A DNA stretch of 32,000 nucleotides. It comes from Candidatus Tremblayella phenacoccinincola. GTDB lineage: Bacteria; Pseudomonadota; Gammaproteobacteria; Burkholderiales; Burkholderiaceae. Shown here one piece after another: positions 921 to 32,000 of the stretch. How positions within the stretch are numbered: the first letter of the stretch is position 1; every line of letters begins with the position of its first letter. The notes below the pieces were generated by a model. The model worked only from the letters and a program-made list of their open reading frames with translations. It was not told the DNA's origin and did no database searches. The position numbers were made by a program, and so were the translations under genes. Where the stretch lies: assembly GCF_009805595.3 (NCBI RefSeq), contig NZ_VMQO03000001.1, forward strand, positions 55,911-87,910, written 5' to 3'.

Positions 921-985
921 CTCTCACAACTCATATCAAAGAATGTTAAGGTCACTCTAACTAACTTTTAAATAGAGGGGGCAGC

Positions 986-1558
986 ATAAACATAACCATA
1001 AACATAACCATAAGCATAACTTCAACTAAACGAATTAATGGTGAAGCCTCAAACCCCAAAGTAAGAATAATTGGACTAAACAAAGAACTATTAGGAACTA
1101 TGAATTTAGAAGAAGCCTTAAGCATATCCAAAAGCTTAAAAACAGATCTTATTGAGACATCACCTAACAGCTTTCCTCCAGCTTGCTGCCTAATGGATCA
1201 CGGTAAGTTCAAATATAGATCTTCAAAGAAAAAACAAAAAGATAAGGCTAAGCAAAAGACCATGCAAACAAAAGAAGTTAAACTTACTCCTAATATTGGC
1301 AAGAAGGACTACAGAATTAAAATGCGTCAGTTAGTCAGTTTCTTAGAGAAAGGAAACAAAGTTAAGGTCATTGTTAAATTCAAAGGACGAGAGATATGCT
1401 TTAAAAACATGGGCTTTGAGATTCTCAAAGAAGTCCAAACCGATCTTTCAGGCCTCTGTACAGTTGAACACTCTAAAAGAAAGGAAGACAAATGCATATC
1501 AATGTTCCTAACAACATTAAAACAAAGAAAGCCTAAACAACAAAAGTGGAATGCATAA
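986..1558 (+). CDS. infC: translation initiation factor IF-3, non-canonical (AUA/AUU) start
   Basis: Listed ORF 1100-1558 matches the IF3 linker and C-domain (DLIETSPNSFPPACCLMDHGKFKY, KFKGRE). The same frame is open upstream to TAA 962-964. It encodes the conserved N-domain (KRINGEASNPKVRIIG, compare E. coli NRINGEIRAQEVRLTG). There is no ATG/GTG/TTG before 1100. ATA at 986 follows GAGGGGG (975-981). The exact start is uncertain (986-1034). Confidence 0.82.
   Translation: MNITINITISITSTKRINGEASNPKVRIIGLNKELLGTMNLEEALSISKSLKTDLIETSPNSFPPACCLMDHGKFKYRSSKKKQKDKAKQKTMQTKEVKLTPNIGKKDYRIKMRQLVSFLEKGNKVKVIVKFKGREICFKNMGFEILKEVQTDLSGLCTVEHSKRKEDKCISMFLTTLKQRKPKQQKWNA
996..1052 (+). repeat. repeat A copy 1 (57 bp, identical to 29613-29669, direct)
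   Basis: Read by eye: ccataaacataaccataagcataacttcaactaaacgaattaatggtgaagcctcaa occurs at both sites. It overlaps the infC 5' coding end. Confidence 0.9.
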
Positions 1559-2150: not shown

Positions 2151-2567
2151 TTGTATTATATATATTGCTTAGCATTCCAAATAATACCTGGTATAACAAC
2201 AGCAATAGGTTCTACCATAGGAATACCATTAACTCATAGAAACTACTCTAATAATATAGCTTTTACAACAGGGTCTATATCCTATAAAAACAAACCTAAC
2301 TGGAATCTAGAACTAAATAAAAAGCAAACAATAATAATGTATATGTATGCAAGTAATATAACTAAGCTAAAAGAAAAGCTATTAAAAAGTAGCTTCTCAA
2401 ATAAAACTCCAATAGCAATAATTACATCAAGCACTAATAAAAACCAAAAGATAATAATAAGCAACATAAAAAGCATAGAAAGCTTATCAAATAATAATAC
2501 AACACCCTCTATATTGATAATAGGAAATATAATAAAGCTATATAGAGATATTACTACATTCAATTAA
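2151..2567 (+). pseudogene. cysG: C-terminal about 135 codons of siroheme synthase / uroporphyrinogen-III C-methyltransferase; N-terminal part absent
   Basis: IIPGITTAIGSTIGIPLTHRNYSNNIAFTTG...TIIMYM...PIAIITSST..NQKII...TPSILIIGNIIKL aligns with the last third of E. coli CysG (VVPGITAASG..GIPLTHRDYAQSV..TGH...LVFYMG...PALIIVGRVVAL). The ORF begins at a TTG directly after a stop, 30 nt past the rplT stop. The SAM-binding N-terminal half is missing. Confidence 0.65.
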
Positions 2568-4795: not shown

Positions 4796-4837
4796 TTCTC
4801 TCTTCTCTATTCTCTATTCTCTATTCTCTATTCTCTT
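4796..4837. repeat. 7-bp microsatellite (ttctcta), about 6 units with degenerate ends
   Basis: Read directly at 4796-4837 in the convergent gltX/ileS spacer. Confidence 0.85.
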
Positions 4838-14871: not shown

Positions 14872-15888
14872 ATGTACAACGGATTCCTTAAAAGTACTAC
14901 CATCATTATAGAACATAATCATTCAACGTTCTGCTTTCCTTCAATGTACAAGCTTGGTAAAACATACGGAACTCTCATTAACTTCCTACCTTCCTTTCTA
15001 CAAGTGTCTTTAGTTTCAATACTAACCCTAAGCATTGGAAAAAGCCTCAACAACAAACACATCAGCCACTTAATACGATGGTTTCCTCTTTCTAGGAAAT
15101 ATACAAAGATCCCATTCGTTCACTCTAAAGTAACTATTCAAGATCTGTCTGGAGTTCCGTTATCTGCTTTCATTACTAATGCTACAACAAAAGTAAAACA
15201 ACTAAATGAAGTTAACATTCTTAGTAGGTCACATTCCTTATACTCAAGCTCTAATCCTAAAACTAACCATAAGTCTGTATCTATTCTATCTTGGAATATT
15301 AGACCCGAACATACAACAAAACACTCACGCAACAAAAAGCTTAATAACATACAGCTACTCTGTTCAGATTCAGAAATCGGTTCTAACGGATGTTCTACCA
15401 ATAACAATGGCATAGGCTTCAGTAGTTGGAGAACAAACAGCTTAGGTTCAGAAGCTAGTATGTTCATGTTAGAACAACCAACCAACCAACTAACCAACTC
15501 CAACCCTCACTTCACAGGCTACGTCGGAATGGAATTAGTTGGTAAAACCCAAAGTAACAGCTCATCAGTAGAACTAGCGTTAACAATTGCTGAGTCTTTA
15601 AGGAAAGCTAATCCATCTGGAAACATAGTAGAGCTCATTGGTAAAGAATCACATTGGTTAACACTCCAAGATAGGTTTATTGCCTCAGGATTAGTGTTGG
15701 AATATGGGACTTTATTTGGGGTTTTTGCCTTCAACAACAAAGCGTTTAACTACATACTGAACGCTGGTAAAGATAAAGATGAACCACTAGCACTAGCAAA
15801 GATTCTAAAAGCTCAGAGGTTATTTGGAGTTCCTGAAAGAAATGGCATACTATGTAGCAACCCTTTAACCGTAAATCTAAGCTGGTAA
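14872..15888 (+). pseudogene. acnA: N-terminal ~340 codons of aconitate hydratase A; degenerate, lacks the Fe-S ligand domains
   Basis: It is collinear with AcnA residues ~20-365. VTIQDLSGVPLSAF aligns with VLMQDFTGVPAVVDL. GSEASMFMLEQP aligns with GIEAEAAMLGQP. YVGMELVGK...VELALTIAESLRKANPSGNIVELIG aligns with [47 protein letters not shown] aligns with EYGATCGFFPID. AKILKAQRLF aligns with EKYAKAQGMW. DSHTTM is degraded to DSEIGS. The ORF stops where it collides with the trpG 3' end. Confidence 0.7.
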
Positions 15889-17936: not shown

Positions 17937-18037
17937 TTGTTAAGATATTAGGTTAACATACTTCCTATCTGTAGCATAGCTAATAAAACTCCGTCTTTTA
18001 TTGGTTGTTCTTCTATAGGTATTCTCAGTCTAAGCAA

Positions 18038-18102
18038 GCCAGTAGTAAAAGCCAGTAGTAAAAGCCAGTAGTAAAAGCCAGTAGTAAAAGCCAGTAGTAA
18101 CA
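18038..18102. repeat. 13-bp tandem array, 5 units (gccagtagtaaaa x4 plus gccagtagtaaca)
   Basis: Read directly. It lies in the divergent trpE/thrB spacer. Confidence 0.95.
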
Positions 18103-19229: not shown

Positions 19230-19240
19230 TATTGATGGCT

Positions 19241-19285
19241 TTTAGTGCTTTTAGTGCTTTTAGTGCTTTTAGTGCTTTTAGGTCT
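19241..19285. repeat. 9-bp tandem array, 5 units (tttagtgct x4 plus tttaggtct)
   Basis: Read directly, starting 12 nt after the thrB stop. Confidence 0.95.
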
Positions 19286-19435
19286 TTGGAGGGGGAATAG
19301 AAGTAGCTAATGGGTTCTACTCCAACTTCAACTGCTTTTCCTTAGCCTATAGAGACATAATAGACTATAGATACAATTCCAATATAGAATGCCTTTTCAA
19401 ACTACAATGAACTGCTGTTAGTGCTAAAACCTGTC

Positions 19436-19497
19436 TGTATACGAGAGGGGAGAGAGAAGCTCTTTAATAGCTATAGCTGTTAACTCTCTCCTCTCCT
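19436..19497 (+). repeat. repeat B copy 1 (at least 62 bp, identical to 31939-32000, direct); GA-arm/CT-arm hairpin
   Basis: tgtatacgagaggggagagagaagctctttaatagctatagctgttaactctctcctctcct occurs at both sites. 19443-19454 pairs with 19484-19495 (12 bp, one G:T). The loop contains the palindrome agctatagct (19469-19478). Confidence 0.9.
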
Positions 19498-27631: not shown

Positions 27632-29149
27632 CTAAAAGAAAACCTCAAGCATGTCACCAACATATAGTTCTTGTAGGGTTTTTAGCACTACCAAAACTCC
27701 GCACTCAGAACCCCTCTTAACTTCTTCTACTGGAGTTTTAAAAAGTTTTAAAGTACGAACCTCGCATATTCCAACTTCCTTACCGTTTCTTGAAACTATG
27801 GTGCTTTTCGATCTTTTCAAAACACCAGCTTCTACTATGCAACCTAAAATTGCTTCGTTGCCTGAAACATTAAAGACTCGCTTAACTGTTGCTTTTGCTT
27901 GTGGTTTGTCCCTGCTTTCAGGCTTTGATTGAAAACCAACAGACCGTAAGTCTTCTGCTAGCTCATACACAGTTCGAAAGCTTTTAATAATAACTTTGCG
28001 TTCTTTGGATAGCTTTAGGATTCTGGAATTAGGTTTTATTCCTAATGTGATGATAACTGCTCCAGATATGGCAGCCATCCCTATGTCACTTTCGTACACT
28101 AAACCTACGCTTTTGTGGATCACTTTTGCTGGTATGTTGTTTGGTATGTTGTTAATGGTATTAACAGCAGCTTCAATCATTCCATAAGTCCTTGACTTAA
28201 CGATGTAGCGAAAGCTGTTATTGTCAGTGGTTCTTAACATATCGAACATGGTTTTTATGTTAACACACTCAGGCTCTTCAGGTTTATTATTCAATATGCA
28301 TTTGCGCTGTGTTGCAAGGTCTTTGGCAGCTTGTTCTGTTGGCACTACTATGAACTTAGCACCTGGTTTAGACGGAGTAGGTAAGCCGTAAATGTTAGCC
28401 GGTGTAGCTAGTGACACTCTTTCTATACGTTTGTTATGTTCATCGTATGCTAGTCTAACTCTACCGTAGTCACTGTTAAGTAAAACTATGTCTCCGAGGT
28501 TAAGAGAACCAGCCTGAACTAATATAGTTGTGCATATGCCCATAGTTGGAGTTACTACTGAATTAATAACTGTTCCTCTTGCTGGTATATTAACTAGTGT
28601 CTTTAGCTTATGTGAAAGCTTTGTTCTTTTGGCTTCTACATGGATTGAAGTCATCAGGTTTGGCACACCTATTCCCTTCTTGGCTGATAAATACACCAAC
28701 TTCGAGCCATCAGCGTTTAGTTTAGACTTGCTGTCAAGGCTTGAGAATATGTTTTTAACATTGGGTCTTTTGTCTATCTTATTAATTCCTAATACAACTG
28801 GTTTTCCAATAGCTTTAACGTTGGTTAATATCTTTTTGCATTCTTCAGTAACACCATCATCTATCGCAATTAGAATAACTACAATATCTGCTAGTTTTAC
28901 CCCATAGTTTCTAGTCAGTTCAAATGTTACGTGGCCTGGAGTATCAACAAATATTAGTTTTCCAATTGGAGGTGTGATGGAGCTGTATGCGAAGATATCT
29001 TGTGTTATTCCTCCAGCTTCGTAGTTAGAAGAATCAGCATTCCTTATACGTTCTATAAGTGTAGTCTTTCCATGATCTACGTGACCTACAATAGCAACAA
29101 CCAAGGCTCTTTTACCTATTCTGTTTATGCTTTCGTTTATGTTCTCCAT
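27632..29149 (-). CDS. infB: translation initiation factor IF-2, minimal form (G domain to C2 only)
   Basis: VVAIVGHVDHGKTTLIERIR, GGITQDI, VDTPGH and NKIDK. At 505 aa the long N-terminal region of enteric IF2 is absent. Confidence 0.92.
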   Translation of the reverse strand: MENINESINRIGKRALVVAIVGHVDHGKTTLIERIRNADSSNYEAGGITQDIFAYSSITPPIGKLIFVDTPGHVTFELTRNYGVKLADIVVILIAIDDGVTEECKKILTNVKAIGKPVVLGINKIDKRPNVKNIFSSLDSKSKLNADGSKLVYLSAKKGIGVPNLMTSIHVEAKRTKLSHKLKTLVNIPARGTVINSVVTPTMGICTTILVQAGSLNLGDIVLLNSDYGRVRLAYDEHNKRIERVSLATPANIYGLPTPSKPGAKFIVVPTEQAAKDLATQRKCILNNKPEEPECVNIKTMFDMLRTTDNNSFRYIVKSRTYGMIEAAVNTINNIPNNIPAKVIHKSVGLVYESDIGMAAISGAVIITLGIKPNSRILKLSKERKVIIKSFRTVYELAEDLRSVGFQSKPESRDKPQAKATVKRVFNVSGNEAILGCIVEAGVLKRSKSTIVSRNGKEVGICEVRTLKLFKTPVEEVKRGSECGVLVVLKTLQELYVGDMLEVFF

Positions 29150-29288
29150 TAGCTTGAGTAGGTTTCTTAAAATGACAGGTGTTAAGAACTATATTAGTAA
29201 ATGCTCAGCTTCTTAAGAGACAATATGCAAGCTGTTTGAGGGTTCTGCCAAGATGTGGAGAGGGTGTGTGTGAAGAGGAGGAGGAGCT

Positions 29289-29310
29289 GGAAGGTAAAGC
29301 TAGGAAGGGG
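29289..29310. repeat. inverted-repeat core, left arm (ggaaggtaaagctaggaagggg)
   Basis: 21/22 match to the reverse complement of 29812-29833. It is embedded in a C-poor GA/GT-rich tract, about 29240-29520. Confidence 0.7.
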
Positions 29311-29612
29311 TTTGAGAGGAGGAAGAGTGTTTAGGTTTGTCTCTGTGTTGATGAAGAAGAAGGTTGATGATGGTGGAAGAGAAGGAGGGTGTGAGGGAGT
29401 TGGAAATAAATGTGTGTGAAAGACTGGGAGTGTGTGAGAGAAGAGGAGAATGAGAGAGGAGAATGGTAGGAGAAGAAGATGGGTATAGAAGATGGGTATA
29501 GAAGAAGAGAGATATAATAGGAAGCTCTTTCCCCAACAGGTGGTATGTCCATGCCTATAGCTGCACGCATTAGAACCTAGAACTACCAGGTATTTCATAG
29601 TGAAGACAACAG

Positions 29613-29669
29613 CCATAAACATAACCATAAGCATAACTTCAACTAAACGAATTAATGGTGAAGCCTCAA
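29613..29669 (+). repeat. repeat A copy 2 (57 bp, a duplicate of the infC 5' coding end, no gene attached)
   Basis: 57/57 identity to 996-1052. It has 2 rather than 3 copies of the 12-bp unit. It diverges immediately after ...gaagcctcaa. Confidence 0.9.
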
Positions 29670-29811
29670 TCAAAACCTTCCCCTTCTCTCCCTCCCCCCA
29701 AAACCTATAACAAGTCCTTCCTTTCCTTTCCTTTCCTTTCTACCTCTTTACTACTCTTCCTTTTCCCCCCAGGCTTCCCCCTCAACACATCCAATACATT
29801 TTACCTTCTTT

Positions 29812-29833
29812 CCCCTTCCTACCTTTACCTTCC
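29812..29833. repeat. inverted-repeat core, right arm (ccccttcctacctttaccttcc)
   Basis: Reverse complement ggaaggtaaaggtaggaagggg, compared with 29289-29310. It is embedded in a G-poor CT-rich tract, about 29670-29850. Confidence 0.7.
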
Positions 29834-29971
29834 CCCCCAATAGCACCACCAAATACCTTCAACACAACCCTGCGTTAAAAGTATAAACTAATATCAATAA
29901 CCCTCAGCTTTTCCCACAAAGCCAACCAATGTACAACCTCTTAGTTCGTTAACTCAGCTGGTAGACCCACT

Positions 29972-31147
29972 ATGAAACCAACCTTTAAGCTTAGACTACC
30001 GGTGTATCTGGATTATAACTCTACTACGCCAGCTGATTCTAGAGTGGTGGACAAAATGCTACCATTCCTCAGACACAAGTTTGGCAACCCAGCCTCACGT
30101 TCACATATCTTAGGCTGGGAGGCTGAAGCTGCTGTAGAAAAAGCTAGAGAGTTCGTTGCTAGTTTAATCAAAGCTTCCAGTAAAGAAATTGTATGGACCT
30201 CAGGTGCAACTGAATCTAATAACTTAGCAATTAAAACCATCGCTCTTTCAAACCTTAACAAAGGAAGACATGTTATTACTCTAAAAACTGAACACAAAGC
30301 CGTCCTTGACACCTGTAGATACTTGGAATCAAAAGGCTTCATTGTTTCCTATTTAGCAGTTAACAACAATGGTTTGTTAGACCTAAACCTACTGAACAAA
30401 TGCATACAGCCTGATACCATCCTTGTAGTCATAATGTATGTTAACCATGAAATAGGGGTAATTCAGAATATAGAAAGCATAAGTAGCTTATGTTCAAGCT
30501 ATGGAATTCCGCTTCATGTTGATGCAGCGCAAGCAGTTGGTAAAGTATCAATAAATACCTCCAAGACTCAGATCAACACCATGTCTTTAACATCTCACAA
30601 AGCCTATGGACCCAAAGGAGTAGGGGCTTTGTATGTTAACAAGGCTAATGTATTTAAGATTGAACCTCAGATGCATGGTGGTGGTCAAGAGAAAGGCGTA
30701 CGTTCTGGAACTCTTCCAACACATCAAATAGTAGGAATGGGTGAAGCGTATCGGTTGATATACAACGAAGGCTTATCAGAGTTTAAGACCACAAAGCAGC
30801 TAAATGTTCATTTGGTTAAGGAATTAGTATCTATTGTTCAAGTAAACGTTAACGGAAGTTTAACATCTCGAATTCCACACAATATCAACATTAACATAAA
30901 GTATGTAGAAGGAGAAGCATTGATGATGTCGATGAAGAATGTTTGTGTTTCTTCAGGCTCTGCATGTACTTCTTCAGCTTTACAACCCTCATACATATTG
31001 CAAGCGATAGGCTGTATTCAAAACGTCCACAACTCTATTAGGTTCTCTCTAGGACGTTTCACTTTAGCTTCTGAGGTTGAATATGTGTCACAGGCTGTTA
31101 TAGAAAAGATTAAAAGATTAAGACAGCTTTCACCACTTTGGAGTTAA
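29972..31147 (+). CDS. iscS: cysteine desulfurase IscS
   Basis: LPVYLDYNSTTP, FGNPASRSH, TSGATESNNLAIK, SHKAYGPKG (PLP Lys) and SSGSACTS (active Cys). Confidence 0.93.
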   Translation: MKPTFKLRLPVYLDYNSTTPADSRVVDKMLPFLRHKFGNPASRSHILGWEAEAAVEKAREFVASLIKASSKEIVWTSGATESNNLAIKTIALSNLNKGRHVITLKTEHKAVLDTCRYLESKGFIVSYLAVNNNGLLDLNLLNKCIQPDTILVVIMYVNHEIGVIQNIESISSLCSSYGIPLHVDAAQAVGKVSINTSKTQINTMSLTSHKAYGPKGVGALYVNKANVFKIEPQMHGGGQEKGVRSGTLPTHQIVGMGEAYRLIYNEGLSEFKTTKQLNVHLVKELVSIVQVNVNGSLTSRIPHNININIKYVEGEALMMSMKNVCVSSGSACTSSALQPSYILQAIGCIQNVHNSIRFSLGRFTLASEVEYVSQAVIEKIKRLRQLSPLWS

Positions 31148-31877: not shown

Positions 31878-31938
31878 CTGTTAAAGGTTAGTTGAGTAGT
31901 TTATTAGGGTTTTATTATTATTATTTGGATGATATGTG

Positions 31939-32000
31939 TGTATACGAGAGGGGAGAGAGAAGCTCTTTAATAGCTATAGCTGTTAACTCTCTCCTCTCCT
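31939..32000 (+). repeat. repeat B copy 2 (runs into window edge)
   Basis: 62/62 identity to 19436-19497, starting 61 nt after the iscA stop. Confidence 0.9.

Follow-up and report, generated by a model that had tools for sequence, protein, structure and literature searches.

The question raised by this locus is why the 5' coding end of infC, the gene of initiation factor IF3, is found a second time, unchanged, in the spacer between infB and iscS. The stretch of DNA analysed here (the window, 32,000 nucleotides) most likely belongs to Candidatus Tremblaya phenacola strain PSOL, from the cotton mealybug Phenacoccus solenopsis. The IscS protein encoded in the window is 100% identical to the Candidatus Tremblaya phenacola protein KAH0998365.1 / WP_159128901.1, and it shares 87% identity with the IscS of strain PPER. 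The published PSOL genome (221.1 kb, seven contigs, 34.8% GC) is a beta/gamma-proteobacterial chimera, and its assembly was left unclosed owing to the repetitive flanks of the contigs (PMC11014885). The G+C content of the window ranges from 27 to 42% per kb. The loci were compared with those of PPER (contigs L001 and L003), the SRR22050797 strain (contig L002) and strain Y (SRR24008595 / SRR17390676; contigs L083 and L084). The identities of the InfB and SucA proteins gave the topology (PSOL,(PPER,Y)).

The gene order in the window is aroC, infC, rpmI, rplT, a methylase fragment, tRNA-Trp and tRNA-Asp, followed by gltX, ileS, rpsT, a PALP enzyme, an OTCase-family gene, yebC, grpE, ligA and tRNA-Ser. 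Next come a pseudouridine synthase, an aconitase fragment, trpG, trpE, an APH-family kinase, thrC and hom; and then rplI, rpsR, rpsF, sucB, sucA, rbfA, infB on the minus strand, a spacer of 822 bp, and iscS, iscU and iscA on the plus strand. Some of these genes seem to be incomplete. The ORF at 2151-2567 (+) matches only positions 110-211 of the 212 positions of the Pfam profile TP_methylase, and the ORF at 14872-15888 (+) only positions 120-272 of the 463 of Aconitase; both are probably truncated or decaying genes. A short ORF of 34 codons at 2651-2755 (+; MSLWDGRFKEKLNIMFEYFNNSLKTDYRF...) aligns with the N-terminal 30 residues of argininosuccinate lyase (NCBIfam NF008964, E = 8.6e-6), and appears to be an argH remnant in the rplT-tRNA spacer. 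Tandem arrays were also found in the intergenic regions at 18036-18100 (13 nt x5), 19238-19281 (9 nt x4.9) and 4796-4836 (7 nt x5.9, 97%).

The two copies, at 996-1052 (copy 1) and 29613-29669 (copy 2), are identical at 57 of 57 nucleotides. Both lie on the plus strand, that is, in direct orientation, with a start-to-start distance of 28,617 bp. The similarity ends sharply on the left (A at 995, G at 29612) and on the right (A at 1053, T at 29670); a CAGC of 4 nt precedes both copies if an offset of 11 nt is allowed, which is not significant. In a self-BLAST of the window the pair scored E = 4.8e-23, far beyond chance. The perfect identity and the abrupt borders described in the sequence-only reading were confirmed. 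Its translations (...INITINITISITSTKRINGEASNPKV... for copy 1 and ...TAINITISITSTKRINGEASIKTFPFSPSPQNL* for copy 2) were correct as well. The only other dispersed repeat of comparable strength in this search was the pair 19432-19497 / 31935-32000. The remainder of the 822-bp spacer gave no match above noise within the window; the idea that further parts of the spacer were copied from elsewhere in the window was therefore rejected, since the 57-mer was the only significant match.

Copy 1 lies in infC (986-1558, +). The RINGE motif is located inside the repeat and the Pfam domains IF3_N and IF3_C follow downstream, in line with the previous assignment of this copy to the 5' coding end of the gene. 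Copy 1 would comprise codons ~4-22 if translation starts at the ATA at 986, and encodes ..TINITISITSTKRINGEAS. Its left border falls within a tandem array at 985-1020 (+), which can be written as (CATAAV)6 or as three copies of the 12-nt unit CATAAACATAAC, and which codes for an Ile-Asn/Thr/Ser repeat at the N-terminus of IF3. Copy 2 holds 2.1 of these units.

The first ATG of infC is at 1100, where the match to Pfam IF3_N enters at profile position 23, which indicates that the start is located further upstream. The frame is open from 965, and zero ATG, GTG or TTG codons occur before RINGE. An SD-like GAGGGGG, then CAGC and then ATA are found at 975-988 (+), outside the repeat, and are kept as GGAGGCAGCATA in PPER and the SRR22050797 strain. 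The string A(G)GAGGRGGCAGC-ATA is common to PSOL, PPER (L003) and the SRR22050797 strain (L002); and the frame from ATA to (K/N)RIN(G/E) is open in 3/3 strains, passing through a variable stretch rich in Ile, Asn, Thr and Ser. The conserved SD-like sequence with its ATA, together with the open frame in the three strains, makes ATA 986 the best candidate, and a likely one, for a non-canonical infC start. It lies 4 nt past the SD-like GAGGGGG and 10 nt upstream of the repeat. The sequence-only reading had held that the repeat must contain the non-canonical start: it was right that no ATG, GTG or TTG lies between the upstream stop and RINGE, whereas the best candidate falls outside the repeat and only the annotated ATT at 1034 falls inside. 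That ATT is implied by the public PSOL annotation (P0121, 174 aa, beginning with MNGEAS). The annotation of PPER and the gene call on the SRR22050797 Logan contig (P0123) start IF3 at an internal ATG, so that the N-terminal domain is truncated. The called IF3 proteins of PPER (P0122) and of the SRR22050797 strain (P0123) also continue past the site where the PSOL frame stops and reach into the rpmI region (...KVECIKRNPN...), which suggests a lost stop or a different infC-rpmI overlap.

Copy 2 lies in the spacer (29150-29971) between the divergent genes infB (27632-29149, -; a short form of IF2 with 505 aa) and iscS (29972-31147, +). It is separated from the infB start by 464 nt and from the iscS start by 302 nt, and is antisense to infB. 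The earlier statement that copy 2 is attached to no gene was thus upheld, and no protein family was matched. The orthologous spacer is 822 bp in PSOL, 310 bp in PPER (L001) and ~170 bp in strain Y (L083, L084), and the PSOL spacer aligns with those of its relatives only in the outer ~90 bp on the infB side and ~70 bp on the iscS side. The middle ~660 bp has no detectable homologue in PPER or strain Y. A homology of the mid-spacer of PSOL with that of PPER or strain Y was rejected, as the alignment scores were no higher than those of shuffles. In strain Y (L084 1-272, minus strand), the 5' end of iscS has in-frame stops before the conserved SKEVVW..SGA; this gene may be a pseudogene, which fits with the missing close IscS match from strain Y.

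The novel part of the spacer includes two low-complexity blocks with short tandem arrays, both specific to PSOL and with no homology to PPER or strain Y. One (29255-29520, +) is C-poor and purine-rich; the other (29670-29860, +) is G-poor and pyrimidine-rich and begins at the base directly after copy 2. Strand composition thus switches within the spacer: C is scarce up to ~29520 and G is scarce beyond 29670, so that upstream of both infB and iscS the sense strand is rich in pyrimidines. Tandem arrays in the spacer are at 29474-29505 (13 nt x2.5) and 29718-29740 (5 nt x4.6), and the spacer arrays were scored as perfect or 97% matching. An inverted repeat of 22 nt (21/22 complementary), with its left arm at 29289-29310 (+) and its right arm at 29812-29833 (-), brackets the PSOL-only segment. 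An ungapped match of 22 nt was reached in 0/200 block-preserving shuffles, but p is ~0.04 on the gapped score, and no inverted homology was found beyond the 22-nt arms. The GA-rich and CT-rich blocks were rejected as the two sides of a long hairpin or inverted duplication that would hold copy 2 in its loop, because shuffled sequence folds just as well (z = +1.33) and the inverted homology does not continue past the arms.

The searches for a function of the repeat were negative. Rfam at the gathering threshold found three tRNAs only over the window, and nothing at E<=1 over 29100-30000; copy 2 does not correspond to a known cis-regulatory RNA in Rfam, such as the leaders of ribosomal proteins or initiation factors. 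No promoter-like or terminator-like sites were detected in either copy, and no stable fold was predicted for the 57-mer with or without its flanks (z-scores from -1.25 to +0.39). The frame through copy 2 and an antisense ORF of 159 aa had no match to a protein family. The readings of the repeat as a promoter, terminator, known RNA or structured element, and of the ORFs crossing copy 2 as coding, were dropped for want of any such signal.

The direction of the duplication could be read from the relatives. Copy 1 is orthologous to the infC 5' ends of PPER (L003 8795-8855) and the SRR22050797 strain (L002 565), which have the same SD-like sequence and ATA, an open frame, and TCAACTAAMCGRATTAATG...RING at the same place. 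These alignments show that the infC copy is the ancestral one, whichever start applies, and that the original was copied from infC to the spacer. In the infB-iscS spacers of PPER and strain Y the 57-mer is absent; copy 2 is a gain of PSOL alone after the split from PPER. Within the 57 nt, infC of PPER differs from infC of PSOL at 7 positions, and copy 2 has the PSOL base at 7/7. The recent duplication proposed earlier is supported relative to the PPER split, since copy 2 is absent in both relatives and carries the PSOL-specific bases.

The perfect identity had also been taken to imply either a recent duplication or an ongoing homogenisation. The first part of this claim stood; the second is unneeded. 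The divergence between PSOL and PPER at four-fold sites is K = 0.25 (468 sites). The probability of 0 differences is at least 0.1 if the copy dates from the last ~25% of the PSOL branch, and drops to 0.03 or less if its age is at least ~50% of that branch, where both estimates vary with the constraint assumed for copy 1. With K ~0.25, zero differences are unremarkable and need only a duplication that falls roughly within the most recent quarter to half of the PSOL branch; gene conversion or homogenisation is not required for the identity.

The best explanation, to which we assign a probability of roughly 0.6, treats copy 2 as an ectopic duplicate of the infC 5' end that has no function, is confined to one lineage and most likely arose by templated insertion. 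Templated (or 'filler DNA') insertions and microhomology-mediated template switching are errors of double-strand break repair and replication restart, and template switching usually leaves microhomology at the junctions. At the infC start, the slippage-prone (CATAAV)n tract might have served as a substitute template for an intermediate of replication or repair, which would have copied 57 nt from it before going back. The acceptor would have been the infB-iscS spacer, then expanding with low-complexity DNA rich in tandem repeats. The exact donor is present (the infC 5' end, ancestral in three strains), and PPER and strain Y lack the insert in their spacers. Like other templated insertions, copy 2 is a short exact copy of a distant donor with abrupt borders in non-essential target DNA, and the donor is a slippage-prone tandem repeat. 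The context of instability was also counted in favour, including the perfect tandem arrays in several spacers, the second dispersed repeat specific to PSOL, and the pseudogene fragments; the PSOL assembly being stuck at seven contigs through repetitive flanks (PMC11014885) supports the same context.

Some points count against the templated insertion. Unlike in typical cases, the junction microhomology in PSOL is unconvincing, being limited to TCAA|TCAA at the right with nothing convincing at the left; because of this weak microhomology, the template switch, like the neutrality of copy 2, is something that we infer. An empty site for comparison is absent, as the ~660 bp around copy 2 are themselves novel. 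Finally, a random ectopic insertion does not predict the infC-5'-like block that PPER has in the same spacer.

The second dispersed repeat, 19432-19497 / 31935-32000, is a direct repeat of 66 nt with 65/66 identity, and its second copy runs off the end of the window. Its GA-rich and CT-rich arms pair across a loop into a hairpin (RNAfold, about -27 kcal/mol). This repeat is absent from the loci of PPER, the SRR22050797 strain and strain Y, and is therefore specific to PSOL among these. It overlaps the last 6 codons of thrC, where the PSOL protein ends with ...GEGRRGES* and the PPER protein with ...LLGC*. The pair brackets the block from thrC to iscA, which is a separate contig of 12,272 bp in PPER, and is interleaved with the 57-nt pair.

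A crossover between the direct copies of the 57-mer could possibly excise a circle of 28.6 kb that carries infC through infB, as the sequence-only reading had proposed. The two copies might then be an active recombination pair as in Candidatus Portiera aleyrodidarum BT, with conversion keeping them identical and crossover swapping the master chromosome and the 28.6-kb circle in a polyploid symbiont. This reading is possible though rather unlikely. The copies are direct and perfectly identical, the 66-nt pair is interleaved with them, the spacers are rich in tandem repeats, and the assemblies of PSOL and PPER break at repeats; the PPER contig MKGN01000015 is the same block as that enclosed by the second pair. 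Alternative structures arise in Portiera from identical direct repeats of 349 and 172 bp, and an identical pair of 56 bp in prfA/prfB is kept by conversion (PMC3673631). However, the PSOL repeat is short (57 bp) and its copies are far apart (28.6 kb), the window is without recombination genes, and Tremblaya PAVE encodes none (PMC4479817). Age alone explains the zero differences; and copy 2 is absent from PPER and strain Y, so that there is no identity maintained by conversion across lineages, nor a long history that would require it.

PSOL resembles Portiera BT (Sloan & Moran 2013, PMC3673631; Santos-Garcia et al. 2020, PMC7821994) in its tiny genome of an obligate insect symbiont, in its atypically large spacers filled with short tandem repeats, and in its few perfectly identical direct repeats, one of which overlaps the coding sequence of a translation factor. 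The identical pair of Portiera TV (56 bp) has nearly the length of the PSOL repeat. The recombinant junctions of Portiera were demonstrated by read pairs, PCR and Southern blots; for the PSOL pair such junctions are hypothetical. The prfA/prfB repeat of Portiera is shared by true paralogs, and gene conversion has kept it in several host genera; whereas copy 2 of PSOL is a stray gene fragment in junk DNA of one lineage only. Candidatus Tremblaya princeps (Lopez-Madrigal et al. 2015, PMC4479817), from the same genus, also has identical paralogous stretches in a tiny genome. Its duplications are kb-scale, include the rRNA operon and are ancient (PMC4479817), but the PSOL repeat is 57 nt and young; and they were homogenised with recombination functions attributed to the nested gamma-symbiont (PMC4479817), whereas the PSOL pair needs no homogenisation.

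The block in the PPER spacer (L001 9744-9781, minus strand) is an insertion of 30 nt, (CATAAV)5, which lies on the strand of infB and precedes the infB start by ~55 nt. Its substructure is 12-12-6-6, the same as that of the infC tract. It matches infC of PSOL at 37/40 positions and infC of PPER with a blastn E of 4e-5. The corresponding site is empty in PSOL (29195-29215) and in strain Y (L084 375-400), which indicates a separate gain specific to PPER. At one of its junctions, the block and the donor have a 5-nt GCATA microhomology in common. It lies in frame in a mini-uORF, which reads MMCIY* in strain Y and MSINISININISIY* in PPER. In the ~55 kb examined of both genomes, CATAAV tracts of at least 3 units are confined to two places, the 5' end of infC and the infB-iscS spacer. 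The PSOL copy and the PPER block were rejected as positional homologues related by a local inversion, since PSOL has both flanks of the PPER block side by side and in the same orientation.

If insertion were random, one would not expect a single spacer to have received sequence from a single donor twice, in independent events. An in-situ microsatellite origin of the PPER block is possible. A bolder and unlikely interpretation is that the (CATAAV)n tract of infC is a recurrent donor to the infB-iscS spacer, with separate events in PSOL (57 nt, direct) and PPER (30 nt, opposite strand, in frame in the uORF), and that the 57-nt pair and the interleaved 66-nt pair drive a multipartite PSOL genome. 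If the recurrent donor were true, it would point to a sequence-directed hotspot of template switching or to a functional coupling of the two initiation-factor loci.

It is quite unlikely that copy 2 is the cargo or remnant of a larger insert, either a MITE-like or palindromic element of ~545 bp bounded by the inverted repeat, or a segmental duplication of the infC region that was mostly deleted. The inverted repeat (21/22) does bracket the novel segment, and the 66-nt repeat shares the layout of a GA-rich arm, AAGCTCTTT, a loop and a CT-rich arm. The flanks of the arms do not match, however, so that there is no target-site duplication, and neither the arms nor the segment has a second copy in the 32-kb window; the two marks of a transposable element or MITE, a target-site duplication and multiple copies, are thus both lacking within it. 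The inverted repeat itself is marginal on the gapped score, its homology stops at 22 nt, and the stability of the fold does not exceed that of shuffled sequence. Zero residual similarity to the infC flanks was found outside the 57 nt.

The infC-5'-like sequence might instead be a functional cis-element of both initiation-factor loci, such as a leader or uORF rich in Ile codons or a binding site for protein or RNA. The restriction of the CATAAV tracts of at least 3 units to the infC 5' end and the infB-iscS spacer in the sequences examined of both PSOL and PPER, and the in-frame position of the PPER block in the mini-uORF upstream of infB, would agree with such a role. Nevertheless, the position, orientation and extent of the sequence are unlike between PSOL and PPER; it is absent in strain Y, and the site used in PPER is without it in PSOL. 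The PSOL copy is antisense to infB and 300 nt from iscS, and no Rfam, promoter or structure signal was obtained, which makes this reading very improbable. An artefact of assembly or polishing, in which copy 2 or its junctions would not be in the real genome, is hardly credible either: the PSOL genome is unclosed and its contigs end in repeats, but errors of a long-read consensus do not produce an exact ectopic copy of 57 nt, and the synteny of the infC 5' end in PPER and the SRR22050797 strain shows that the junctions of copy 1 are genuine, so that the existence of two copies implies those of copy 2 too.

The ectopic duplication of the infC 5' end is a further example of a known phenomenon, the short identical dispersed repeats in the unstable genome of an insect symbiont. 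Copy 2 alone is of little weight, as a probably neutral scar of 57 nt, and its value is that of a marker. The PPER parallel is the only part of the finding that might hide something new. For infC itself, the repeat points to a likely AUA start, unlike the public annotations of PSOL (ATT) and PPER (internal ATG). The pair also offers two concrete junctions that bear on whether a multipartite or recombining genome lies behind the unclosed assembly of seven contigs. Taken with the array-rich spacers and the other repeat specific to PSOL, the 57-mer shows that the chimeric PSOL genome still gains DNA and makes ectopic copies, like that of Portiera BT.
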